DNA of 63,904 bases, counting the filler, from Folioceros fuciformis (taxonomy: Eukaryota), in the NCBI GenBank assembly GCA_049999805.1. It is 17 parts of 17 records of this genome, joined end to end, with 100 filler letters (N's around TTAATTAATTAA, not from the genome) between each part and the next. Parts side by side here need not be neighbours in the genome. Positions count along the whole stretch, not along the records: positions 1 to 17,704 come from JBNGIO010000528.1; 16 more parts are not named here. One strand, 5' to 3'. A program made the translations under genes and the position numbers. Below are positions 1,168-35,259 of this stretch, one piece after another; the stretch's first letter is position 1; the number at the start of each line of letters is the position of its first letter. Below the pieces are notes generated by a model. The model was not told where the DNA came from. It made no database searches and saw only the letters and a program-made list of their open reading frames with translations.

Positions 1168-4017
1168 TCAGGTAACGTTCATTTTAGGGGAACAGCTTTG
1201 GCTCGCGTTTCTGTCCATGGACGGACTGTTTTGTGTGCCAGATTGTGAAACGTGTTGCTCTTCCCTCGTGCTGGGAAGGATATGATGCAGCCGTGCTTCA
1301 CTCCTGGGGTGCGTCTTGTTCCCAGCCAGGAAGGTGTGCACCAGTCCATCCATATCTGTCCACCAGCTTTGGCCCGGCTGCTTCCATGCCCTCAACTTTT
1401 TTCTCCTAGCCTGTATCTCCTGCCCCTGCTCCCACAGCTGGGCAGTGCTGTACAAGCTTGACATCAACACGTATGACGCGGCGTCGTTGTGGTCCAGCAT
1501 CACTGCTTGGTTGAAAGCTTGGAGGCCCACCTCCACATTGCTCCATTTTCGACAAGCACCTAACAGGGTGCGCCAGACTGTGGTGTCAGGTGGTACGGGC
1601 ATTGTTGTTGCTAGGGTTAGTGCGTCGTCCAGTTGACCGGCACGGCCCAGGAGATCCACCATGCAGGTGTAGTGCTCCACTGCAGGGGTGATACCGTGGT
1701 GATGCTTCATTGCCTCGAAGTACTGTTGTCCCTTGCTGACCTCACCTGTGTGACTGCAGACTGATAGTATGGCGAGGAATGTGATGGCATCTGGATGTGT
1801 GCCATCCCCTTGCATTTCGAGAACCAAGTCAAAGACCTGGTCGCTGGCTCCTTGGTGACTGTATCCTGCGATTAGTGCATTCCAAGCGGAAGAGTCTCGT
1901 TTGGGCAACGCATCAAACACCTGCTGCGCATCGGCCATGCTCCCACACCTTCCATACATGCTTATCAAACTGACAGCCACGGACACATCAGCTTGAACCT
2001 CCTGTGCCTCAATCTGGGAATGTAGCTGCCTTCCCAGCTGCAAAGCTGCAACATTTGCACATGCTTGCAGGAGACAGACAAAGGTCATGGAATTGGGTAC
2101 AGCGATGCCTTCGTCTTGCATAGCACTGTATAGACGAATGGCTTCCTGTCCCATGCACTGCTGGGAATAGCCGGCAATTAGAGCCGTCCATGTTACTACA
2201 TCCTTCTGACCGAGTTGGTCAAACACTCGTCGAGCATCGTCCAAGCTGCCGCACTTTGCATACATGTTCACCAGACTGCTGGCCACGAAGACATCAGATT
2301 GATATCCTAGTTTCCTGATTTGTGCATGGAGACGCTTTCCCGTCTCCAAAGCTGAGGTGCCCACACTTGCACAAGCCTGCAGAATGCACACGCTTGTCAC
2401 GGAATCGGGTATGGAGGTGCCTTCTTCTTGCATCGCACTGTAAAGAGCAAGGGCTTCTCGCCCCCTGCCCTGCCGGGAATATCCTCCGATGAGCGCAGTC
2501 CACGTAACTGCATCTTTATGAGCAAGCCCGTCAAACACCCTTTGAGCGTCTTCCAAGCTGCCACACTTAGCGTACATGTTCACCAAACCGTTGGCTACAA
2601 ACACATCAGCTTGCTCTCCTCGTTCCCTAATTTGGGTGTGAATCTGTCTCCCTCTCTCCAAAACCGGGTTGCCCAAACTTGCACATGCTTGAAGAAGGCA
2701 CACAAATGTCACGGAATTGGGGACAGCAATGCCTTCTTCTTGCATTGCACTGTACAGACGAAGAGCTTCCTGTCCCCTGCCCTGCTGAGAAAATCCCGCA
2801 ATCAAAGCAGTCCACGACACCACATCTTTTTGACGAAGGCCCTGAAAGACCATCTCAGCGTCTTCTAGGCTGCCACACTTTGCATACATGCTTACCAGAC
2901 TATTGGCTACAAACACATCAGCTTGGTACCCTCGGTCTCTGATTTGTGCATGGAGCTCCTTCCCCCTCCCCAACGCCAGGGTGCCCACACTTGCACAAGC
3001 CTGAAGGAGGCACACAAATGTCACAGCATTGGGTACAGCCATGCCTTCGTCTAGCATGTCACTGTAAAGACAAAGAGCTTCCTGCCCTCTGCCCTGCTGG
3101 GAATACCCTGCTATTATGGCATTCCATGTCACCACATCCTTTTGGCCAAGTCCCTCGAACACCCGGTGAGCCCCTTCCAAGTTGCCACACTTTGCATACA
3201 TGTCCACCAAGCAACTACAAACGAACAAATCAGGCTCGACGCCAGAAGCCATCACATCAGCATGCACCTCCTGCCCAGCTATCAAGTCTGCTGCTCTTGC
3301 ACAAGCCTGAAGTGCTGCCACAAAGACGTGGCCATCTGCCTTCACACTTGACATGCGCATCCGATGATACAGCTCTATGGCCTCCCTATCCTGCCCCTGT
3401 TGAACATGCGCAGAAATTATGGAAGACCACATGAAGGCATCCGGGTTGCCAACTACGGTGAACACATCCATCGCGTCTTGCAACCTGCCATGAGACGCAT
3501 ACATTCGCAGGATATGATTGCACAGGAAAGTGTCCGACTGGTATCCCTGTCTTACGGTGAGAGCATGGACCCGACGACCCAGCACAAAATCCTTCTTACC
3601 CACGCAACTCTTCAGCACATAGTAGAAAAGAGCAGTGGGAATGCAACAGTCAGTCTGCACCAGAACTCCTAGTGCCTCAACAGCCTCAGTCACATGACCC
3701 CGATGACAGAGCTGGCTCACGGTTTCAGCCGTCACGCCCGTGTGCCATCCAGTGGGTCTGCGAGGGCGAGGGTCACCCGACAAGCTCCAGTCGACTTCAC
3801 GAGGGCCCATCTCCTGGAACTCCTCATGCTGGAGTCTGATGTCACATTCTCTGGGACGGCCTGGGTCTCTTGCGTCGGTGATGCAACTAGTGGCTTCCTT
3901 GGTTGCCAATTCCTGCTTCCTTGACGACAGGCTAGTGGGAGCTCTTCTAGGCAATCCGTCACACTTTGCTGGGTCCAGGGATGCGATCCCCACAAGCAGT
4001 CCTGCTGCCCTCGGCAT
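1168..4017 (-). CDS. PLS-class PPR protein with E1/E2 and truncated WW-type E+ (organellar RNA-editing specificity factor)
   Basis: Intronless 949-aa ORF. Repeated P-L-S triplets (DVVTWxAxIAGYSQQG / VTFVCLLQACAS / VFVANSLVxMYAKCGSL), then HYTCMVDLLGRAG, WRTLLGAC and KQPGQSWWTD. No HxE/CxxC deaminase motifs. Confidence 0.93.
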   Translation of the reverse strand: MPRAAGLLVGIASLDPAKCDGLPRRAPTSLSSRKQELATKEATSCITDARDPGRPRECDIRLQHEEFQEMGPREVDWSLSGDPRPRRPTGWHTGVTAETVSQLCHRGHVTEAVEALGVLVQTDCCIPTALFYYVLKSCVGKKDFVLGRRVHALTVRQGYQSDTFLCNHILRMYASHGRLQDAMDVFTVVGNPDAFMWSSIISAHVQQGQDREAIELYHRMRMSSVKADGHVFVAALQACARAADLIAGQEVHADVMASGVEPDLFVCSCLVDMYAKCGNLEGAHRVFEGLGQKDVVTWNAIIAGYSQQGRGQEALCLYSDMLDEGMAVPNAVTFVCLLQACASVGTLALGRGKELHAQIRDRGYQADVFVANSLVSMYAKCGSLEDAEMVFQGLRQKDVVSWTALIAGFSQQGRGQEALRLYSAMQEEGIAVPNSVTFVCLLQACASLGNPVLERGRQIHTQIRERGEQADVFVANGLVNMYAKCGSLEDAQRVFDGLAHKDAVTWTALIGGYSRQGRGREALALYSAMQEEGTSIPDSVTSVCILQACASVGTSALETGKRLHAQIRKLGYQSDVFVASSLVNMYAKCGSLDDARRVFDQLGQKDVVTWTALIAGYSQQCMGQEAIRLYSAMQDEGIAVPNSMTFVCLLQACANVAALQLGRQLHSQIEAQEVQADVSVAVSLISMYGRCGSMADAQQVFDALPKRDSSAWNALIAGYSHQGASDQVFDLVLEMQGDGTHPDAITFLAILSVCSHTGEVSKGQQYFEAMKHHHGITPAVEHYTCMVDLLGRAGQLDDALTLATTMPVPPDTTVWRTLLGACRKWSNVEVGLQAFNQAVMLDHNDAASYVLMSSLYSTAQLWEQGQEIQARRKKLRAWKQPGQSWWTDMDGLVHTFLAGNKTHPRSEARLHHILPSTREEQHVSQSGTQNSPSMDRNASQSCSPKMNVT

Positions 4018-4336
4018 GACTCAATTCCCATGCTCCACACAACCATAGCTACATGAAAGTGAGCCAACGACAACTACACATTCTGGGCACTGGCCACACA
4101 GCTTTCCTTCAAGCTATGCATCCATACATGCTCGGCAGGCCTGACGGTCATCACTGTGGTAAAATACGAATTATGGGATGACGAATAAACTAAGATGATT
4201 TTTTGCATAGTGTGCCTCAAGTATAAAGCCCAGAGGCCAGTCCCAGCGTTGGAGGCGAGGGAGGACAGTGTTGACCGGGACAGCCTCCTCTGCTGCAGCT
4301 GGTCCAAGGAAAAGGAGTCTCTGATACTCGCTGGCC

Positions 4337-6195: not shown

Positions 6196-6852
6196 ATGGG
6201 TCGACCAGTGTGTGAAAGATGCAGCAGACCTCAGTCTGCTTGCCTGTGCGATGAGCTCCCGCGGGAGCCGGTGCAGACTGTGACTCAGGTGGTGGTGCTC
6301 CAGCATCCGCACGAGCAGCGGCACAAGCTATCCACGGCGCCTTTCCTGCCGGCCTGCCTCGCCCGCTGCCACCTCCTGGTCGGCCGCCGGTTTGCTCCAG
6401 GGCTGCTACCTCTACTCGACGCTCTGGCTGAGACGGCAGCTGCCACACGGCCTCATGTGCTACTGCTCTTTCCGTCACCAGATGCCGCCGACCTGCAACA
6501 ATGGAACATCGTCAACAGCAGCAGCAGCGGCAACCGCGACGTCGTATTGCTGCTGGTCGACGGGACTTGGAAACATGCCAAGGAGATGATCAGGGCCAGC
6601 ATGCCGTTCCTGGCCAGCTTCGTGATTCCAGTCTGCTTTCCTCACGACGTCCGCAAGCAAGGGCTCGGCAAGGGAGAAGAACTAATTTTGAGGAAGGAGC
6701 CGTACGCTGGTTGCATCAGCACCCTGGAGGCTGTGGCGCGGGCCCTGGCATTCTTGGAGCCTAATGGTCCGGAAATTCAGGACAAGATGTTGGCGGTCTT
6801 GCGCAAAATGGTTGATATTCAAGCAAGTTATATCCCTCGGCGGCATCACTGA
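6196..6852 (+). CDS. DTWD2: DTW-domain tRNA-uridine aminocarboxypropyltransferase (DTWD2/TapT-like)
   Basis: Intronless 218 aa. N-terminal CxxCxxP..CxC, LQHPHE, LLFPS, DGTW, LRKEP and STLEA motifs. Confidence 0.88.
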   Translation: MGRPVCERCSRPQSACLCDELPREPVQTVTQVVVLQHPHEQRHKLSTAPFLPACLARCHLLVGRRFAPGLLPLLDALAETAAATRPHVLLLFPSPDAADLQQWNIVNSSSSGNRDVVLLLVDGTWKHAKEMIRASMPFLASFVIPVCFPHDVRKQGLGKGEELILRKEPYAGCISTLEAVARALAFLEPNGPEIQDKMLAVLRKMVDIQASYIPRRHH

Positions 6853-6922
6853 TAGTAAAACCTTGCGGCATCGCTGATTGTAAAACCTTGCGACATCGCT
6901 GATTGTAAAACCTTACGGCATC
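6841..6922. repeat. 25-bp tandem repeat (~3.3 copies) overlapping the DTW stop codon
   Basis: cggcatcactgatagtaaaaccttg / cggcatcgctgattgtaaaaccttg / cgacatcgctgattgtaaaacctta / cggcatc. Confidence 0.9.
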
Positions 6923-6961
6923 CACGTGACGGTACGTTTCTTGGATGACCACTTTATCCAT

Positions 6962-9539
6962 CTATCCTAAGAGCTGCTGCAGTTGATCGATATCGTTCAG
7001 CAGAATGAGACTGCCATCGGCATCCACGTCTATTATCGCAGAGTCGCCTTCTTTGATCTGGCCTGCCAGCATCCTCTCTGCGACGCCGTCTTCCAGGACT
7101 CTCATGATTGCTCGTCTTAGTGACCTGGCACCATAGCTGGCGCTGTAACCTTCCTCTACAATATAGTCACGAAACCTTTCTGTTACTCGTAGTCCGATTC
7201 CCATCTTCTGTAGGCGGTCGAATACGTCTTTAAGCATAATGTCCGCGATTTCCTTTGCTTCGCATTTCGTGAGCTGCTTGAATACGATGATCTCATCCAG
7301 CCTGTTCAGGAACTCTGGCCTGAAGTGGTGCTTCAGCTCCACGTCCACCAAGCTCTTCATTTTGGTGTAACTGTGGCCCGCAGCCCTCTCAATCACAGTG
7401 CTGCCAAGGTTGGAGGTCATAATTTGGAGAGTGTTTTTGAAGTCCACGGTCCTACCTTGGCTGTCTGTAAGCCTCCCATCGTCCAAAATCTGAAGCATCA
7501 TGTTGAAAACATCAGGATGAGCTTTTTCAACCTCATCGAATAGCACCACTGTATAAGGACGCCGGCGAACTGCCTCCGTTAGCTGACCACCATCACCATA
7601 TCCAGCATATCCCGGCGGTGATCCAATCAGCTTCGACACTGCGTGCTTCTCCATATACTCGCTCATGTCCAGCCTTATCATGGCATCCTCAGAACCAAAG
7701 TAATAGGATGCAAGAGCTTTAGCCAACTCCGACTTACCTACACCTGTTGGGCCACAAAAGATAAAACTAGCAATTGGGCGCTTTGGGTTCTTCAATCCCA
7801 CACGAGCTCGGCGGATAGCACGGCTAATTGCCTTCACAGCTTCATCTTGACCAATCACACGCTGGTGCAAAGTCTCCTCCATCTTGAGGAGCCTGTCCGA
7901 CTCATCTGAGGAGACCTTGTCGACTGGAATGCCGGTACAGGCACTTAATATTTGCTGAATATCACTCTCCGTCACCACGGGTCCAATTTCAGCAGCATCT
8001 GGATCTGCCGACTTCTCACTCCTTGCTTCAGTCATGGAACCAATTTGTGCTATCATCTTTATCTCCCAATCCCGCAACTCTCCAGCCTGCAAAATGGAGA
8101 AATATCTCATGAATAAGCTTGAAACAACCAGCTACCATCATCATCGCGCACAACCTTGTGAAGCACATGATACGTTTACACACCTTCCAAAAGTCTTGGT
8201 CTCGTACTGCTTCATTTTTATCCTTCACTATTAGCTTCAACATCTTGTCACGCTCCTTGGCCTCTTCAGGGAGCTGAACATACCAAGCAGTTCGAGGAAC
8301 AAGTTAGGCTAAGCTTGGATGAATCCTTTGCTTCAGTTACCCTGTAAAAGGAAATCATCAGCAAACATTCACCTGAGAAAACCGTAGGCGTACACGGGAA
8401 CCAGCTTCATCCATGAGATCAATAGCCTTGTCAGGCAAACATCTTTCACTGTCAACAGGCAAGAGCAGGCAGTCAGTGCAAACGCTCCCAAGGACAACAC
8501 ACTGATAGGACGGACAAGACTGATAAGACGAACCTGATATACTGATAAGAAAGTTGTGCTGCAGCTCCGAGCGCTCCATCAGTGTACCGCACCTTGTGAT
8601 GAATTTCATAGCGCGGTCGCAAGGCATGCAAGATCAGAATGGTTTCTGGAACCGAAGGCTCTGGCACTTGAACTGGCTGGAAACGCCGCTCCAATGCAGG
8701 ATCTTTCTCGATGTACTTCCTGTACTCATCCATAGTTGTAGCACCAATACACTGCAAAGCAAACGCTCACAATGCAAACCAGGTCTGAAAGGTCAGTATT
8801 TGTGTGAGAGAAATATACAGGATAAGTGTTCAACACGATGATCAGTGTGCCGTACTTGGAGGTCACCACGAGCAAGTGCTGGCTTCAAAATGTTTGCAGC
8901 GTCCATGGACCCTTCGGCTGACCCAGCTCCAACCAGGGTATGAACCTCGTCGATGACCAGAATGATATTGCCGGCGTGCCTAATTTCCTCAATGAGTTTC
9001 TTAAGCCTTTCCTCAAATTCACCTCGGTATGTCGTGCCAGCAACCAGCAGCCCCATGTCCAAACTCACGACCTGCAATGAAGACAATGATGAAGGCCGAC
9101 ATGCCCAACAAAAGGACCAACACAACAGCCAACGTGGACCAGTCGTACCCTTTTGCCCTCAATAGTCTCTGGCACATCCCCAGCTACTATTCGCTGGGCA
9201 AGGCCTTCAGCAATTGCTGTCTTTCCCACTCCAGGCTCTCCAACTAGACAGGGATTGTTTTTCCGTCTCCGGCTAAGAATTTGAGTAACCCTTTCAATCT
9301 CTGTTTGCCTTCCAACCACTGGATCAAGCTTACCCTGTTCGACATGCGAGCATGGTCAGAAGCCAGACAATTACAACCTTCAGCCAACAGGTCAGACCAA
9401 AGCCCCAGAAGAAAGGGAAAGAGACAAACATCTTCTGCAAGCTTGGTCAGGTTAGTTCCGCACTGCTCAAGGGTTGAAACAGGCGGTGCAGCTTCACGAA
9501 CAGACCAGTAATTCGCCCACTGCCGACAGTTGGGATGAC
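6962..9539 (-). CDS. clpC: ClpC-like HSP100 AAA+ chaperone, atypical (no IGF loop, no recognisable Clp_N domain); exons 9539-9430, 9334-9149, 9071-8856, 8751-8534, 8448-8373, 8273-8184, 8086-6962; true start unresolved
   Basis: GT-AG splicing gives [32 protein letters not shown]..|..IDEVH..|CIGATT..ALERRF..|[17 protein letters not shown]-like M domain|[30 protein letters not shown]. Closely follows plastid ClpC sequence. Confidence 0.85.
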
Positions 9540-9899
9540 CTGCCACAGGATCCAAGTAACAGAAGTCATGTCCGGCCAGATGGTGGGCACAGCCAGGTTA
9601 ATGAGACAGGGAGACGTCTGTGGAAACTTACGCTTAAATCCTGACTCCTCAGCGCTATCATGGGCCAGCCCAGAAGACGAGCAAGAGGCATTTGAGAAGC
9701 CCATGACTTGATTGCCAAGATTAACGTTTCCATCTGACAAGCACGCTAGCGCTGCTCTCTTGGAAACTTTGCAACCTTGACGCTCTGCGTATTGAGAATT
9801 CACAAGCCTCGCCAACAGCCCGGGCGAACGCATCCTTCCTCCCATGTTATCACTCAAGGTGGATGTCCTCTCAGGGGCATAGTAGACCCCGATGGGTGT

Positions 9900-10145
9900 T
9901 TCACTATCACCAGTCAACAACCGCAGCTTCAACAAAATTCGTGAATTCGCAACATCGCGAATCCCCTCTTCTCAGATGTCCCCATTTCGGTACGATCTCA
10001 AGTGGTGAAGCAAGCTCATAGATGTTGGCAGGCGCATTCACATCCTCATGCGATGTCGTTCGAGGTTTAGGGGTTTGGGTTTTGGTTGCTCGACGCCCTA
10101 ACCATAAAAATCTAACACAAACACGATGACACAGGGATACAGCAA
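9900..10145. repeat. Diverged local duplicate of the panC 5' / PPR promoter segment (~12020-12290)
   Basis: Colinear shared blocks: cttcaa..gtgaa..gcga(a/t)tcccctc..acgatctcaa(g/c)tggt..tcctcatg..tcg(a/g)ggtttaggggtttgggttt..gccctaa..acgatg..acagggat. Confidence 0.7.
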
Positions 10146-10597: not shown

Positions 10598-12010
<1,413 letters not shown>

Positions 12011-12286: not shown

Positions 12287-15200
12287 ATGCTTCTGCCATC
12301 CAGGGCTGCCTATCGAGTGGCATTTCACTCATTCAGGAAGGGAGCTCATCCCAAAGAGTGTCTGGCAAGTGAGGGGTTGCATCAGGAAATTGTGTGCCGG
12401 CGGTTTTTTCTGGACCATTTGCTGGGGTCTGCGAGCAGGCAACAACACACGCAATGCTCCGACTTCCGGCATGGGAAGACCCAGAAAGTTTTCTTATTGA
12501 ACAAGTCCTACATTCCAGGATGGGTGGATGAGCAGGTGGGTGCTCAGGATGTGCAGATGGGTCGAGGAGCACGTAAATCCGGGCCTGTAGAATATCCAAG
12601 GCACGCAACGGCTGAAATTGTAAGCATATTATGTGAGCAGGGGCAGCTCAGTGAGGCTGTCGAGGCTCTGGGAGCACTGGTGCAAGCAGAATGTTGTGTT
12701 CCTGATTATGTTTTTTGTACTGTCCTGAAAAAATGCGTGGTCCAGAGAGATCTTGTTCTGGGCCGGCGGGTGCATGCCCTCATCGTGGCAAGTGGCTATG
12801 AGTCGGACACGTTTTTGTGCAACCACATCTTGCGGATGTATGCTTCTCATGGCAGGTTGCAGGACGCGATGGACGTGTTTGCAAGGGTTGCCACACCCGA
12901 TGCCTTCACGTGGTCTGCCATAATTTCTGCGCTTATCAAACACGGGCAAGATAAATGGGCCATACAGCTCTATCATCAGATGCATAGGACAGGTATGAAA
13001 CCAGATGGCTATATCTTTGTTGCAGCCCTCCAGGCTTGTGCCAGGAAAGGGGACCTGAAAACTGGGCAGCAAGTGCATGGTCATGTAATGTCCTACGGGC
13101 TTGAGCATGATGTGTTCGTTTCCAATTCCTTGGTGAACATGTATGCAAAGTGTGGTAACTTGGAAGAGGCTCAAAGAGTGTTTGACGGACTTGCCCAGAA
13201 AGATGTGGTTACGTGGAATGCCATGATAGCAGGATATTCCCAGCAAGGCATGGGGCAGGAAGCTCTTCGTTTATACAGGGTTATGGAATCGGCAGGCATT
13301 GTTGCACCCGATTCTTTAACATACGTGAGCCTCTTGCAGGCGTGCGCAAGTCTGGGTACCCTGTCTCTGCAGAAGGGAAGGGAGCTCCACGCACAAATAA
13401 GAGAGTTGGGACTTCACGCCCATGTGTTTGTGGCCAACAGCCTGATAAGCATGTATTGTAAGTGTGGCAGCTTGACCGACGCGCGAAGAGTTTTTGACCA
13501 ACTAGGACAGAAAGACGTAGTGACTTGGACAGCCCTGATAGCGGGGTATGCCAACCAAGGCAGTGGTGAGGAAGCCCTTCATCTGTACAGAGCTATGCAA
13601 AATGAAGGCATGGCAGTACCAAACGCGGTGACTTTTATGTCTCTCCTGCAGGCATGTGCAAGTGTAGGCACCTTGGCTTTGGAGCAGGGGAAACAGCTTC
13701 ATGCACAGATTGACAAGCAAGGACTTCAGTCTGACGTGTTTGTAGCTAACGGTTTGGTAGACATGTATGCCAAGTGTGGCAGCCTGGAAGATGCTCGAAG
13801 AGTCTTCGATAGACTTGGTCAAAAAGATGTGGTACTGTGGACGGCTCTAATAGGTGGATATTTGGAGCAGGGCATGGGAGAGGAATCCCTTCATCTCTAC
13901 CGAGCCATGCAGGAAGAAGGCATTGCTGTACCGAATGCCGTGACATTCTTGTCTCTCCTGCGGGCATGTGCGTGCGTTGGTGCCCTGGCTTTGGAGAAAG
14001 GTAAACAACTACATGCACAGATCGTTGAGCGAGGGCTTCAGGTTGATGTTGTTGTGGGTTGTAACCTAGTGAACATGTACGCAAAGTGTGGCAGCCTAGA
14101 GGATGCTCAACTCGTCTTCGATGGACTTGATCAAAAAAATGTGGTGACATGGACGACTCTGATATCAGGATATGCAAACAGCGGTGCCCTGGAAAACGCT
14201 CAAAGGATGTTTGAGAGGGTTTCAGAGAAAGATGTTGTGATGTGGAATGCCATGATTGCAGGATATTCTCAGCAGGGTATGGGGCAGGAAGCCCTTCGTC
14301 TGTACAGCTCCATGCAAAAAGAAGGCATGGTTGCACCCAATTCTGCGACATTTGTGTGTCTCCTGCAGGCCTGTGCTAGTGTGGGCACCCTTGCTTTGGA
14401 GAAGGGGAAGCAGTTGCACGCAGAAATAAGAGAGCTAGGGCATCAAGCTGATGTGCTAGTAGCCAACAGTTTGGTAGACATGTATGCGAAATGTGGCAGC
14501 TTGGAAGATGCACGGAGGGTGTTTGACGCAGTTAGTGAGAAAGGTATGGTGACCTGGACAGCTATGATCGCAGGATATTCCCAACACGGGATGGGGCAGG
14601 AAGCGCTTCGTCTCTACAGTGCCATGCAAGAAGAAGGGATTACTGCACCCGATTCTGTGATGTTTGTCTGCCTCCTGCAGGCATGTGCACGAGTGGGCAC
14701 CACGGCTTTGAATGAGGGGAGGAAGCTCCATGCACGAATTCAAAAGCAAGGGCTGTTGTCTGATGGTCCGGTTGCAAACAGTTTGGTGAACATGTATGCA
14801 AAGTGTGGCAGCCTAGCGGATGCCCAGGGTGTATTTGATGGACTTGCTCACAAAACCATGGTGACGTGGAGTGTCATGATCGCAGGATATTCCCAGCAGG
14901 GAATGGGCCAGGAAGCCCTTCGTCTTTACAGGGCTATGCAAGAAGGAGGCATTGTTTTACTGGATTGTGTGGCATTGGCGTGCCTACTGCAAGCATGTGC
15001 AAATCTTGCAGCTTTGGATGTAGGAAGGCAGCTACATGCGTTTATTTTAAAGCAAGAGATTCAAGTTGATGCCCTAGTAGCTGGCAGTTTGATAAACATG
15101 TACGGAAAGTGTGGGAGCATGGTTGATGCCCGACAAGTTTTCGAGGCTTTACCTGCGCGAGATGTCATTAACTGGAACGCGCTGATCGCAGGCTACGCTC

Positions 15201-15835
15201 GTCAAGGGGATGCAGAAGTGGTCTTCGACTTGTTTCACAGAATGGAGGAGGATTGCATACAGCCAGCTGGGATCACATACCTCAGCCTCATGACAGTATG
15301 CAGTCATGCAGGGTTAGTGGACAAGGGTCAAGAGTACTTTGAGGCCATGATCAGACAGCACGGCATCACTCCCACCGTGGAGCACTACGCATGCATGGTG
15401 GATCTCCTGGGACGTGCAGGCCAACTGGACGATGCACTGGCCTTGGTACGGAAAATGCCCGTTCAACCCACTTCTTCGGTCTGGCACACTCTACTGGCTG
15501 CCTCCCAGAAGTGGAATAGCTTGGAGGTAGGGCGCCATGCCTTTGAGGAAGCAGTGAAATTAGACGAGAGCGATGCCGCGGCGTATGTGCTGATGTCCAA
15601 TATGTACACGGCTGCCGACATGTGGGAGCAGGCACGGGAGATGCAGGCTAGGAGAATAGAACTTGGGGTGTGGAAGCAGCCGGGACAGAGCTGGTGGACG
15701 GACATGCTAGGGCTCGTGCACAAATTTTCTGTAGGAGATACCGGACATCCCGAGAGTGAGGGTATATTTGCAAGGCTCAAACATTTGCTCGCTCGAATAC
15801 AGAAAGAAGAGTATGTGTCACATCGCTTCAGTTGA
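12287..15835 (+). CDS. PLS-class PPR protein with E1/E2 and WW-type E+, no catalytic DYW; paralogue of 1168-4017
   Basis: Intronless 1182 aa. N-terminal targeting-like extension, PLS triplets with one SS-type motif (VVTWTTLISGYANSGALENAQRMFERVSEKD), HYACMVDLLGRAG, KQPGQSWWTD...GDTGHPESEGIF, stop before the HxE motif. Confidence 0.93.
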   Translation: MLLPSRAAYRVAFHSFRKGAHPKECLASEGLHQEIVCRRFFLDHLLGSASRQQHTQCSDFRHGKTQKVFLLNKSYIPGWVDEQVGAQDVQMGRGARKSGPVEYPRHATAEIVSILCEQGQLSEAVEALGALVQAECCVPDYVFCTVLKKCVVQRDLVLGRRVHALIVASGYESDTFLCNHILRMYASHGRLQDAMDVFARVATPDAFTWSAIISALIKHGQDKWAIQLYHQMHRTGMKPDGYIFVAALQACARKGDLKTGQQVHGHVMSYGLEHDVFVSNSLVNMYAKCGNLEEAQRVFDGLAQKDVVTWNAMIAGYSQQGMGQEALRLYRVMESAGIVAPDSLTYVSLLQACASLGTLSLQKGRELHAQIRELGLHAHVFVANSLISMYCKCGSLTDARRVFDQLGQKDVVTWTALIAGYANQGSGEEALHLYRAMQNEGMAVPNAVTFMSLLQACASVGTLALEQGKQLHAQIDKQGLQSDVFVANGLVDMYAKCGSLEDARRVFDRLGQKDVVLWTALIGGYLEQGMGEESLHLYRAMQEEGIAVPNAVTFLSLLRACACVGALALEKGKQLHAQIVERGLQVDVVVGCNLVNMYAKCGSLEDAQLVFDGLDQKNVVTWTTLISGYANSGALENAQRMFERVSEKDVVMWNAMIAGYSQQGMGQEALRLYSSMQKEGMVAPNSATFVCLLQACASVGTLALEKGKQLHAEIRELGHQADVLVANSLVDMYAKCGSLEDARRVFDAVSEKGMVTWTAMIAGYSQHGMGQEALRLYSAMQEEGITAPDSVMFVCLLQACARVGTTALNEGRKLHARIQKQGLLSDGPVANSLVNMYAKCGSLADAQGVFDGLAHKTMVTWSVMIAGYSQQGMGQEALRLYRAMQEGGIVLLDCVALACLLQACANLAALDVGRQLHAFILKQEIQVDALVAGSLINMYGKCGSMVDARQVFEALPARDVINWNALIAGYARQGDAEVVFDLFHRMEEDCIQPAGITYLSLMTVCSHAGLVDKGQEYFEAMIRQHGITPTVEHYACMVDLLGRAGQLDDALALVRKMPVQPTSSVWHTLLAASQKWNSLEVGRHAFEEAVKLDESDAAAYVLMSNMYTAADMWEQAREMQARRIELGVWKQPGQSWWTDMLGLVHKFSVGDTGHPESEGIFARLKHLLARIQKEEYVSHRFS

Positions 15836-30613: not shown

Positions 30614-33600
30614 TGAACAGCAAGTAGATTGTAGTAGGCGCACGCGCACTAGAGACATGTAGGCGAGGAAGCGATAGAATTAAGAATAGAATTAGATGGT
30701 GAAACGACGTTCGTGTGTCTTTCACATGACACGGCAGTTACCAACTACCAACCGTCAACGTGCCCTAAAAATAAATGAAACTATTCATATCTACTCGCCT
30801 AACCCTAATACACTTATTATTTAATACAATTATTATTTAAAGGGTAAGCGAATCCTCATCCAACACCCCCACTTGAGCTTAGCCCTAATTTGAACATGGC
30901 AATTACGCTCCGGCTTGTGTCTTTACTCCGGCGGCTGCTCCATTCTTGTGAAACTTGATCTGCTTACCTCCGAGTTTAGGGTTATGGGTGCTGCACTGCA
31001 ATTGGACTATCCGCCGCCGCACTCGGCCACTGCTGCGCTGCTCTTTAAGACAATTAGGGCTGAGGCCACTCTTTCATTCTCGACTTCACAGCTGTTAAGC
31101 TTGGCCCAGCGCCGCCTCTTGCCTACATGTACTCCGCATGGATGCGTTCTGGACTGCAAGGGCAACAATTTGGCTCCGCTCAGTGACTAGTATCTAGCAG
31201 CTCGCAGTCTTTCTTTGTTCAGGGATTGCAGGCAGTCAGGCCTAGTCTTCTTGCATGTTTGATATGCAGCTCTTTAGACAGGGCCTTTGTGAGTAGATCG
31301 GCTGGGTTCTCTACTGTTGAGATGTAGGTCACAGTTATTTGTCCATCCGCCACCACTTCTCTTATAAAGTGGTGATGGATTTCTATGTGCTTCGTCTTTG
31401 AGTGGAATACCGGGTTCTTTGTAAGCGCTATGGCGCCTTGATTATCACAGTACACCACTGTTGCATCTTTTTGGACGACCTCAACGTCAGATAAGTTCCT
31501 TCTTACCCAGATTACTTCCTTTGCTACAACCGTCAATGCTTTGTACTCAGCCTCAGTGCTTGATGTGGAAACTGTTCCCTGTTTCTTGCTCGACCAAGAA
31601 ATTGGTCCTCCAGCTAGCATCAGTACGTATGCTGACAGTGACTTCCAATTGTTCAGGTCAGAGGCCCAGTCCGAGTCGCAGAATCCTTCAAGAATCAGGT
31701 TCTTTCCTTCTGTGCCTGAATAAACAATCCCTTCAGTAGATGTGTTCTTGAGGTATCTGAACGTGCGTTTGACTTGGCTCCAGTGCTCAGGGCATGGATT
31801 TTCAAGAAACTGTGACTCAAGTCTGACAGCATATGCAATATCCGGCCTTGTCACGTTTGCCAGATATATGAGAGTGCCTACAGCATGCCTATACGGAATC
31901 TTGGCCATCTCTGCAGAATCTTCAGGTATTAAAGGTTCCTGTACCATTGTCAGCTTCAGTCCCGTTGCCAGAGGTGTTGCACACCCATTTGCCTCAGCCA
32001 GATTGAAACGCTTCAGACCTTCTCTAATGTACTTTTTCTGGCAAATTGACAGTCTCCTGGCTGCTCTGTCCCTTGCAATCTCTATGCCTAAACACCACGT
32101 GAGCTCTCCCAGCTCAGTCATCTCGAACTCACGCTTTAGAAGTGCTTTCACTTTGCTCATCAAGCTGCTCTTTCCCTTGGTGGCGGCCAAGACAAGATCA
32201 TCTACGTACAGCAGTAAGATCAGAAAGCTCTCTCCTTCTCTCAACATGTACAGTCCATGATCAGCCGTCCCCTGCTTGAAGACTAGCTTCTTCAGGTACG
32301 CGTCAATTCGATAGTTCCATGCTCTTGGACTCTGCTTGAGTCCGTACAGGGTCTTGTTTAATTTACAAACTAGGTGATCTTTGCCTGGTTGCACATAACC
32401 CTCCGGCTGTTGCATGTAGATTTCTTCTTGCAGCTCACCATGCAGAAAAGCCGTCTTTACGTCCATTTGCTCGAGGTCCAAATCCAGGTGGGCTGCCAGT
32501 GCAAGCACCATCCTCAAAGTTGTGAATTTGACAACTGGAGCAAATGTCTCATTGAAGTCTACACCTGGTACTTGAGAAAAGCCACGAGCGACAAGTCGTG
32601 CCTTGTAGCGTTCTATACTACCATCAGCCTTCTTTTTCAGTTTGAAGACCCATTTGCAGGAAATGGGTTTCCTATCTCTCGGTAGTTCCACAAGTGACCA
32701 GGTACCATTTTTCATGATGGAAGCATATTCATCATCCACGGCCTTCTTCCACTGCTTTGATTTTGATCCTGTGAATGCTTGTGTGAGGGTGACAGGTTCC
32801 AAGGGATCCACACTGGCTGCCACCATGGCTCGGACATATGCACTCGAGGGTTGTGCTTCGCCATGCATTTCTGCAGCTCCAGATGATGACCCCTCTGCAG
32901 CTTGTGCCCCCACTGATGTGTCTGCAGCAGTAACTGGTTCACTCCTTGCAGCATGGGATCGTGACTTGGACTTATTTGGTCGCCAGTCCTCCATCTCCAG
33001 CCAAGGCTCCTTCCAGGGCCTACTTCGATCTCTCAGACTATACCGATGAGGCAGTTGTTCTGATACTGGATTGTGCACATCTGGAGGTTCCTGATCCAAG
33101 ACGTCCACGTCAGCCTGTTCAGGTACATCCTCTTCATTTACTTCGTCCTCTGTCGAGAGACCTTCAGTTTCTGCATTCTCTTCAGAAGTGTCCTCTTCTA
33201 GATCACCAGTCTGGTCAACATGAGAGACCACAGCATCCTGACATCTTCCTTGACTGTATGCAGACTGTAAGGCATCATCGTCCTCAACCTCTGTATCATC
33301 GTGCATCTGTGCACTAGCAAGTCCAGGTCCGGAAACCACGGGGCGCAATGCTTGCAGCAAACTGCGTTCATCAAAAACAACACTTCTGGCATGGCTCACA
33401 ACTCTTGTAACAGGGTCATACAGCTTATAGGCTTTAATGCCATCAATGTATCCTATGAACACCAACTTAGCAGCCCTATCCTGCAGTTTCGACTTCCTTT
33501 TGGGTTTGGGTACAAATGCATATGTAGGTGAGCCAAAAATACGCAGGTGCCGAACAGCTGGCTTCCGCCCCCAGCATGCTTCAAACGGTGTAGTGCCAGG

Positions 33601-35259
33601 TAAGACCCTTGTAGGCAGTCGGTTCAGTAAGTAATTTGCTGTATTTACTGCTTCACCCCAGTAAGAACGTGGCAGCCGTGCTTGTTTCAGGAGGGCTCTG
33701 GCAGTTTCCTGCAGCAGCTGATTTTTCTTTTCAGCGACTCCATTTAGCTGAGCTGTGTATGGAACAGTGAGCTGGCGTTGAAAGCCAAGACCTCGACAAT
33801 ACTCATCAAAGGCGTGTGAGGTATATTCCCCACCATTGTCGGATCGCAGGCATTTTAACGACCGTCCATGCTGGCGTTCCACCAGAAGTTGATATTCCTT
33901 GAATGTTTCCAGGGCCTCACTCTTGTGCTTCAGTATATACAGCATGCAATAGCGGGTGGCATCATCAATGAAGGTCATAAAGTAGGAACCACCACCGATG
34001 CTTGGAACAGAAATAGGACCACAAATATCTGAGTGCACCAAATCCAAAGGTGCTGCAGCCCGGTGAGCTCCTGACTTGTCAAATGCAAATTCGTGGTGTT
34101 TCGCATAAACACATGCTTCGCAAAGTGGCAGGTCCCCCACTTGATCTGGAATCTCGTCAGAGTACAAGGTGCTGTTGGCCATAGCCTGCAACTTCTTTCC
34201 ATGGGGATGACCACACCGCAAGTGCCAAACAGTGGCTACCTCCTGCGAAGTACTACTGCCTCCCAGGCCAGCAAGATTCAAGATAGGTAATTTGCTACCA
34301 GGAAGACTTAAATTGATAGATATCATTTACTGGAAATGCTTCAGCAATGGCCACACCTGGTGCCACACTTCTCACTATCGTGCACTTGTCCTCGCGGAAA
34401 GAAACTTGCAGTGCTCTATCTGCTGTAAGCTGCCTGACTGACAGCAGGTTTTTGGTGATGGCAGGTACATGAAGGACTTCATTTAATTCCAGGCTCCCTC
34501 CATTGTGTAAAGGTAAAACCACTCTTCCCACCCCAAGAATAGGTAGAGTGCGTTCATCACCTAACAGCACAGACTGTGCTTCCATATATGGTTTATACTC
34601 GCTAAATGAAGCTCTTTTGTGGCAGATGTGCGCAGAGGCTCCTGAATCAATAAACCACGCTGGTGTACGGGAACCAGAGGTGGTAAGGCATACAGTCAAA
34701 ATGACTTGTGCCTGCTTCTTCTTCGGTGTCTGCACATTGTGTGCCTCAGGAGAGCCCGTACCTCCTGCACCTTCCTTTTTAGGCTCACCGGCTTTTCTCT
34801 TGCGACAGTCCCGTGCCCAGTGGCCTGGAATGCCACACCAATTGCAGTTTCCACTCCTTTTCTGGCTGCCTGAACTCTGACCAGGTCCACTAGGAGCTGT
34901 CCTACCACCACGGTTAGCACTCCAGCTACCTCGACCTCTCTTAAATGGTTTGCCTCTGCCTGCATAGAGGGCTTGCTGACCCTGTGAATGCTGTTTTGCA
35001 GAGCGTGAAGCCGTGTGGCTTCTTCCTGCAGCATCGCACTAACCACTCCGTTGAATGTTAGCGGTTCTGCATCCAATTTCAAGGCCTTGGCTATCCTGTC
35101 CTCCACCTTCGCCATGGCCTGTTGACCAGTGACGAAGGGGCCATAACTTGGTGGTAAGGAACTCAATAATCTACAGGCTGCTTCGTAGTCTGTGATCTTC
35201 GTTCCCGTTGAACTTAGTTTTGCACGGGCAATCCTAAATCTTGCTATGCAGTGTTCAAC
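30614..35259 (-). mobile_element. Near-complete Ty1/copia element: gag, zinc knuckle, protease, integrase, RT, RNase H (pol ORF 31219-34326), PPT and ~250-bp 3' LTR (30614-30865)
   Basis: CNWCGIPGHWARDC, WFIDSGAS, WHLRCGH, VHSDICGP, SDNGGEY, KARLVARG, YVDD, DSDWA, TKHIE. PPT aagtggggg then TGTTGG. Frameshifts near 34960 and 34310. The left LTR boundary is approximate. Confidence 0.92.

Follow-up and report, generated by a model that had tools for sequence, protein, structure and literature searches.

The minus strand of a 63,904-nt stretch of the Folioceros fuciformis genome (assembly GCA_049999805.1; this whole stretch is referred to as the window) carries a nuclear gene derived from ClpC, which is essential as the motor of the chloroplast Clp protease. 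The gene runs from position 9845 to 6962 and comprises eight exons with 744 codons, followed by the stop codon TAG (6964..6962; Table 1). Its model combines tblastn with Marchantia ClpC (P0005), whose six collinear matches cover query residues 268–921, with the adjoining splice signals. The ATG of exon 1 is the first in-frame start after an in-frame stop at 9974..9972, and no Pfam family or known domain was found in this exon. All seven introns are GT..AG and 77–104 nt in length, in agreement with a first-pass annotation of this DNA, which had described a ClpC paralogue with intact splice sites and motor motifs, from which the loop for docking to ClpP had been deleted in frame.

Architecture and ancestry of the gene

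The docking loop is missing from exon 8. For the window protein and the 120 best longer homologues, the length of the loop segment was taken as the distance from TSNxG to a point three residues ahead of F[RK]PEF. These homologues stem from the upper length band (682–2000) of two protein searches with the exon of the second AAA+ module (D2), the other band being 213–681; the searches covered about 5.8 billion proteins, with the best 120 of about 8000 scored matches taken from each. The segment is 28 aa long in the window protein versus 40 aa in 117 of 121 segments (120 ClpC matches), the exceptions being 41 aa in two (both P0002), 39 aa in one and 25 aa in one (P0001). An I/L/M-G-F tripeptide is present at the loop in 119 of the 120 homologues, and none is found in the window protein. 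The tblastn alignment with Marchantia ClpC contains one clean 12-residue gap, GGIGFQLDYGEK, and the removed stretch corresponds to the position of the canonical ClpC P-loop GGxIGFxLDYxEK, IGF included. The interval that the first-pass annotation had given, 7355..7420 on the minus strand, equals codons 593–614 in exon 8, and its loss of about a dozen residues amounts to exactly 12, both by segment length and by the single alignment gap. In an AlphaFold2 (AF2) model of the D2 exon, a helix (residues 244–249), a 5-residue link and a second helix (255–269) occupy the loop site, with a predicted local distance difference test (pLDDT) score of about 90, and a phmmer alignment makes the loop region two residues shorter than in Thermus thermophilus ClpB. 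Together with the superposition of the model on ClpB and ClpC structures (see below), these features indicate that the deletion cuts the protruding docking loop back to a turn like that of ClpB and leaves the predicted fold undisturbed.

A second loss had been overlooked in the first-pass annotation: judged from the sequence, the whole Clp_N domain is gone as well. Nothing in the gene matches canonical ClpC residues 1–267 (tblastn, Marchantia ClpC), and a low-stringency tblastn of the 64-kb window with the first 300 residues of five ClpCs, as listed for the queries P0005 and P0074, gave only the start of the first AAA+ module (D1), the other matches listed having E >= 1.5. Clp_N (PF02861) was found in none of the eight minus-strand open frames between 9247 and 10597 (Pfam, E<=1). 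Between leader and D1, where the Clp_N repeats of canonical ClpC take up about 150 aa, the window protein has no corresponding sequence; in an alignment of 101 ClpC sequences, 78 near-invariant N-domain columns are without counterpart in the window protein. The space upstream of the ATG is only about 750 bp, as a gene for pantoate-beta-alanine ligase, likewise on the minus strand, has its end near 10600. What precedes D1 is a leader, residues 1–59 of which align from residue 1 with the region before the N-domain of Marchantia ClpC (z 5.2; none of 500 shuffles scored as high).

The motor, by comparison with Marchantia ClpC, is largely retained. All ten motifs checked are present and seven are identical; the Walker A/B pairs and Arg-finger motifs of the two modules, as well as sensor 1, match exactly or almost exactly. 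The protein has the features of a Class I Clp/Hsp100 member, namely a pair of AAA+ modules that both contain Walker A, Walker B and an Arg finger (ALERRF in D1, GRTVDF in D2), and a D2-small domain; Pfam finds AAA_2 (3.1e-69) and ClpB_D2-small (PF10431, 6.7e-22) in exon 8, and D2-small is folded with pLDDT above 90 in the AF2 model. The UVR-type M-domain, assigned by alignment and not by Pfam (the domain spans an intron), aligns collinearly and without gaps to the UVR segment of canonical ClpC, with 35 of 55 residues identical to Marchantia. The Walker sets, Arg fingers and UVR M-domain are thus as intact as had been claimed, and the slightly altered motifs AGTTYRG, GYAG and GARS were likewise found. 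The AF2 model, built from the D2 exon with a 36-row alignment, has a mean pLDDT of 85.3 and superposes on nucleotide-binding domain 2 (NBD2) of T. thermophilus ClpB (PDB 1qvr, 4fcv) at 1.3–1.6 Å (1.3 Å over 306 columns), and also on the ClpC chains of ClpC–ClpP complexes. One stretch of D2 (7601..7690, minus strand; codons about 505–535), EYMEKHAVS...GYAGY, is nearer to T. thermophilus ClpB (EYMEKHAVS) than to canonical ClpC (EFMERHTVS), which may be chance through conservative changes or a drift toward ClpB-like residues of the second pore loop.

In a tree of 34 rows and 883 columns, the window protein lies inside the streptophyte ClpC clade with a support of 98 in the Shimodaira–Hasegawa-like approximate likelihood ratio test (SH-aLRT), apart from ClpD-like and ClpB-like rows, and the identification as a ClpC-derived paralogue, not a ClpB or ClpD, holds. 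Its end branch is 0.57, compared with 0.012–0.092 in 15 canonical ClpCs. Over D1–D2 it is 77–80% identical to canonical ClpCs, which are 90–96% identical among themselves, from Chara to rice. The D2 exon is 73–77% identical to streptophyte plastid ClpC, the best match being from the hornwort Nothoceros aenigmaticus, which makes a hornwort the probable source of the window, and in a representative library the only closer cluster is ClpC (P0012), with the other representatives 35–71% identical. Of 474 columns at which 101 canonical ClpCs hardly vary, 66 are altered in the window protein versus 0–3 in eight canonical comparators (by region: D1 21/177, M 3/20, linker 5/17, D2 large 20/188, D2 small 11/61). 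Two other assignments were considered and rejected. T. thermophilus ClpB is the top solved-structure match of D2, yet an identity of 73–77% to plastid ClpC against about 55–60% to ClpB-type proteins, together with the tree, excludes descent from ClpB. Identity with ClpD is excluded by the ClpD-like rows P0149 and P0162, which form a separate clade (support 100), and by the UVR-type segment of the window protein.

Table 1. Features of the ClpC-derived gene and of its surroundings (positions along the window).
Feature	Position	Strand	Remarks
Exon 1	9632..9845	-	ATG start, 71 codons plus one base; Ser/Ala/Gly-rich, basic; presumed organellar transit peptide
Exon 2	9430..9539	-	36-codon linker, from leader directly to D1 start
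Exon 3	9149..9334	-	D1 Walker A GEPGVGKT at about 9218..9241
Exon 4	8856..9071	-	D1 pore loop AGTTYRG (about 9012..9041; canonical AGTKYRG) and Walker B
Exon 5	8534..8751	-	D1 Arg-finger region ALERRF and D1 small subdomain
Exon 6	8373..8448	-	End of D1
Exon 7	8184..8273	-	Short UVR-type M-domain, first half
Exon 8	6962..8086	-	1125 nt, open; M-domain second half, linker, whole D2 module, D2-small, stop
D2 Walker A (exon 8)	about 7730..7753	-	Motif check
D2 pore loop PPGYAG (exon 8)	7601..7618	-	Motif check
12-codon deletion site AAG/HSY	7370..7385	-	Gap between codons 607 and 608, about 7376/7375
25-bp tandem repeat	6840..6922		3.3 copies, 91% matches; between the stops of two convergent genes, presumed 3' untranslated region of the ClpC-like gene
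DTW-domain gene	6196..6852	+	Single exon; PF03942, 6.7e-44
Pantoate-beta-alanine ligase gene (panC-like)	about 10600..12010	-	Multi-exon; one exon PF02569, 1.2e-13; directly upstream of the ClpC-like gene
PLS-type pentatricopeptide repeat (PPR) protein	1168..4020	-	950-aa open frame, E motif (PF20431)

Transcription, paralogue and selective constraint

Contigs from four sequencing runs, X1 (DNA), X3, X4 and X7, were compared with the window over 6900..9900. A 4346-nt contig of X3, which is from the same organism but from another sample and another study, skips all seven introns at the predicted bases, with joints at 8086/8184, 8273/8373, 8448/8534, 8751/8856, 9071/9149, 9334/9430 and 9539/9632 (once the reported cut shifts are applied), whereas the DNA run X1 holds the unspliced form only, with none of these joints. 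Over 6900..8085 the X3 contig is collinear with the window and differs in two letters, and its sole indel is one extra 25-nt repeat unit behind 6899. The gene is therefore spliced as modelled, and the deletion, for which an assembly error had been named as a possible source, is present in an independent sample.

A diverged paralogue exists in the same organism, on a 6361-nt contig of X1 and a 3038-nt contig of X3, and is 79% identical to the window gene over 7602..7930 (70 differences in 329 nt). Between 7350 and 7602, the interval that holds the loop, the paralogue has 287 letters versus 251 in the window, a surplus of 36 nt or 12 codons, and next to 7280 its end reads, by eye, as the canonical RQLTK.EVKE form of a motif that is altered in the window. 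A canonical-type ClpC in the same organism, for which the first-pass annotation had asked as a check, is thus at hand in this longer copy. Introns of the paralogue lie at comparable places (of the intervals compared, one is equally long and another deviates by 67 nt), which points to a DNA-based duplication. The X3 contig depths of 137 for the window gene and 566 for the paralogue are not usable for ranking expression.

The X4 and X7 contigs represent two related species and are collinear with the window over 6948..9862, introns included, with 250–252 differences and 58–59 gap letters. All 11 indel rows listed for X7 fall in introns 3–7 and none in the D2 exon; 12 other indel rows probably belong to X4 only or lie beyond 9092. 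Orthologues with the same deletion hence exist at collinear loci, and since the residues that flank the gap (AAG/HSY) are unchanged in both species, the deletion predates the split of these species. Of the 36 listed substitutions between 6991 and 7387 (codons 604–744), 20 are synonymous and 16, in 13 codons, are nonsynonymous, against 93.7 synonymous and 329.3 nonsynonymous sites. From these listed differences, the synonymous rate (dS) is about 0.25 and the nonsynonymous rate (dN) about 0.04–0.05, so that dN/dS over the 141 codons is about 0.16–0.20, not near 1 as for a decaying duplicate. This ratio indicates that the gene is now under purifying selection and is selectively maintained.

Proposed function and its alternatives

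We consider it probable that the gene encodes a functional ClpC derivative that is uncoupled from ClpP. It would have originated within streptophytes when plastid ClpC was duplicated at the DNA level, most likely in the source organism's own lineage, and the copy would then have evolved about ten times faster than canonical ClpC but is now under purifying selection. The encoded double-ring AAA+ ATPase has kept its motor elements, namely the two nucleotide sites, Arg fingers, pore-loop tyrosines, short UVR M-domain and D2-small, and has lost both docking modules, Clp_N as platform for adaptors and substrates and the IGF P-loop as contact to the ClpP/R core. In the portions available of two sources, the IGF/L tripeptide is described as indispensable if Clp chaperones are to dock on the core, and its absence in ClpB3 as precluding this (PMC7966870; bioRxiv 10.64898/2026.05.10.723991), while the adaptors ClpS1 and ClpF are described, in what is accessible of these and a third source, as working via the N-domain and UVR regions of ClpC (PMC7966870; bioRxiv 10.64898/2026.05.10.723991; PMC2829514). 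Once imported into the plastid via its leader, the protein would hydrolyze ATP in a hexameric ring that could neither dock ClpPR nor be loaded by N-domain adaptors, and because the loop that couples ClpC to the Clp protease and the adaptor-binding domain are both lost, its action would be independent of proteolysis.

Two modes of such action are conceivable and are weighed about equally within this interpretation. The protein could be an autonomous unfoldase or remodeller, probably with a weaker grip given the pore-loop changes, or it could be a subunit of canonical ClpC hexamers that lowers the number of IGF loops and N-domains per ring and thereby tunes ClpC–ClpPR coupling. ClpX rings tolerate few missing IGF loops, and Arabidopsis Hsp93 without its N-domain reportedly neither complements nor binds the envelope; these two points are in line with a modulatory or a stromal role. 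A further step, tentative and rather doubtful, would be that a 'bare motor', stripped of its input interface (the N-domain) and its output interface (the IGF loop), is kept as an expression-tunable brake on ClpC–ClpPR coupling and adaptor loading via co-assembly. For plastid proteostasis, a literature search found no description of a paralogous subunit that doses an AAA+ protease in a dominant-negative way, and the same search, by which most subscription journals were not covered, yielded no expressed, conserved plant ClpC derivative without both modules.

Several points weigh against a functional, uncoupled derivative. The function proposed for the protein is deduced from the known role of the IGF loop, as it was in the first-pass annotation, which had named both modes. 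That X3 is an RNA run is a guess, and no RNA run is on record among those that contain the stretch. The dN/dS value covers 141 of 744 codons, was obtained from contigs rather than reads and uses listed differences only (290 more exist), and at about 0.2 the ratio lies far above the constraint to be expected of canonical ClpC. The tree comes from a quick IQ-TREE search in which the window row is a long branch, and it does not fix the sister of this row. No orthologue is among the protein matches listed, the best of which are 77–79% identical, are all canonical ClpC or ClpC fragments and lack the deletion, nor was one listed from the Nothoceros transcriptome, the source of the best ClpC match; given the lack of an orthologue among these matches, the gene looks restricted to the lineage of the source organism. 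The likeness of the leader is clearly above shuffles with only one of eight ClpCs, and not with that of the hornwort Nothoceros, hence retention of the ancestral ClpC transit peptide is only suggested. The pore loops deviate at residues that are invariant in canonical ClpC (D1, K to T; D2, V to A), and a neighbour of sensor 2 has changed from P to S (GARS); these changes could reflect relaxed function. Finally, an altered R-motif remains downstream of the deleted loop and may permit some contact with the R ring.

This last point underlies the alternative that the protein still works with ClpPR, either by docking via other surfaces or the altered R-motif, or by forming a minority of the subunits in ClpC hexamers that stay coupled to the protease. 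Its role would then lie within proteolysis, which we regard as unlikely. In cyanobacteria, an R-motif just downstream of the loop confers binding and specificity of ClpC to the R ring, according to the available text of two reports (bioRxiv 10.64898/2026.05.10.723991; PMC7966870), and the motif survives in the window protein as YTKMKSLV versus canonical YNRIKSLV (with its limits taken from a text description). Arg fingers and sensor 2, the inter-subunit elements, are conserved, which makes co-assembly with canonical ClpC plausible, and the window gene and its paralogue are both transcribed in the same sample. However, the R-motif departs from canonical ClpC at its two invariant residues (R to K, I to M), and the whole protruding loop is replaced by the 5-residue turn, shorter even than in ClpB; moreover, the sources that describe IGF/L as essential for core docking, as far as their text is available, give ClpB3 as a chaperone that cannot dock without it (PMC7966870; bioRxiv 10.64898/2026.05.10.723991).

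That the gene is a transcribed but decaying, 5'-truncated ClpC duplicate, with the deletions as damage and the long branch as a sign of lost constraint, appears distinctly unlikely. It would account for the 66 of 474 canonical-invariant positions that are changed, those in the pore loops and next to sensor 2 among them, for an end branch about ten times longer than in canonical ClpCs and for the lack of an orthologue among the protein matches listed. Comparable cases could be seen in rice OsClpC4, which is described in the available part of the source as lacking ClpN as well as IGF/L at the usual site and as apparently silent (PMC2829514), and in angiosperm ClpC-like gene models without IGF (P0001, P0127, P0296). 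However, the frame of 744 codons is open over eight exons with seven canonical introns, which are spliced exactly, and no catalytic motif is damaged. Among single-base changes taken at random in the coding sequence, about 4% (265 of 6696) would make a stop, and with about 21% base difference from the paralogue in the best-conserved stretch, a neutral copy should, by rough reckoning, hold several stops. In addition, the locus has been kept in three species, with the listed indels in introns and with an excess of synonymous changes (ratio about 0.2), which argues for maintenance rather than decay. An artefact of assembly or annotation, such as a collapsed assembly or N-domain exons located elsewhere, can practically be dismissed, for although stray N-domain exons were sought in the window rather than in the whole genome, the same collinear D2 exon occurs in contigs of two samples and of two related species, the spliced contig reaches only 183 nt past 9900, which is too short for a 150-aa N-domain, and no credible Clp_N match is among those listed for the 64-kb window.

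Known counterparts and neighbouring sequence

With plastid ClpC (Arabidopsis CLPC1/CLPC2, Marchantia, Nothoceros) the window protein has in common the Walker A/B motifs, Arg fingers, short UVR M-domain and D2-small, whereas it differs by the absence of the Clp_N repeats and of the IGF P-loop, by the altered R-motif and pore loops and by its branch of about tenfold length. ClpB/Hsp104 proteins, such as plastid ClpB3 and T. thermophilus ClpB, the latter being the best solved-structure sequence match of the D2 exon (1.4e-126), likewise lack a ClpP-docking loop. In contrast to these, however, the M-domain of the window protein is of the short ClpC/UVR type (about 55 aa) and not a long coiled coil, which in ClpB couples to Hsp70; the ClpB-like rows fall outside in the tree, and the N-domain, which ClpB has kept, is gone. 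The bacterial stand-alone Hsp100 disaggregases ClpG/ClpK and ClpL have a ClpC-like build with a short M-domain and without a ClpP-binding loop or a peptidase, yet they carry their own specialised N-terminal substrate-binding domains, whereas the window protein, set against these general descriptions, has no such domain.

Plant ClpC and ClpD are described with an IGF loop, and only ClpB3 without, in the portions available of three sources (PMC7966870; PMC2829514; bioRxiv 10.64898/2026.05.10.723991). The nearest precedent found is rice OsClpC4, in the accessible part of its source a ClpC-class gene that has a UVR domain, lacks ClpN domains and the IGF/L tripeptide at its normal site and gave no amplicon (PMC2829514). 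Compared by this description, the two losses are alike, but the window gene yields correctly spliced transcripts and has been conserved in three species, and the two genes represent independent events in distant lineages. The IGF loop is wholly or partly gone also in the angiosperm ClpC-like models P0001 (Pterospermum), P0127 (Aristida) and P0296 (Linum) and in the record P0303. These four are not orthologues of the window gene; they may reflect recurrent loss, gene-model errors or pseudogenes. The grass rows P0124 and P0127, which stand for a divergent ClpC3/4-like group and of which P0127 is without the tripeptide, branch beside canonical ClpC, and P0127 groups with a divergent grass ClpC-like representative.

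The window gene can be viewed as a natural separation-of-function allele of ClpC. It could reveal what the ClpC motor does without feeding a protease and without loading by adaptors of the ClpS1/ClpF type, and whether mixed hexamers tune proteolysis, although its apparent lineage restriction limits its importance. It is also a caution for annotation by homology, as automatic pipelines would label it as plain ClpC.

The DTW-domain gene converges on the ClpC-like gene, with the two stop codons about 110 bp apart. Their transcripts may overlap at the 3' ends, since the 4346-nt X3 contig continues some 1.8 kb past 6900. The additional repeat unit in this contig means that the copy number of the 25-bp repeat between the two genes varies between samples. 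Beside the PPR gene listed in Table 1, a second PPR-like region at about 13000..15800 was seen as chance tblastn matches; such PPR genes are a typical trait of early-diverging land plants in which organellar RNA is heavily edited. A translation resembling a retrotransposon integrase core at about 33445..33795 on the minus strand was met as a chance alignment only.

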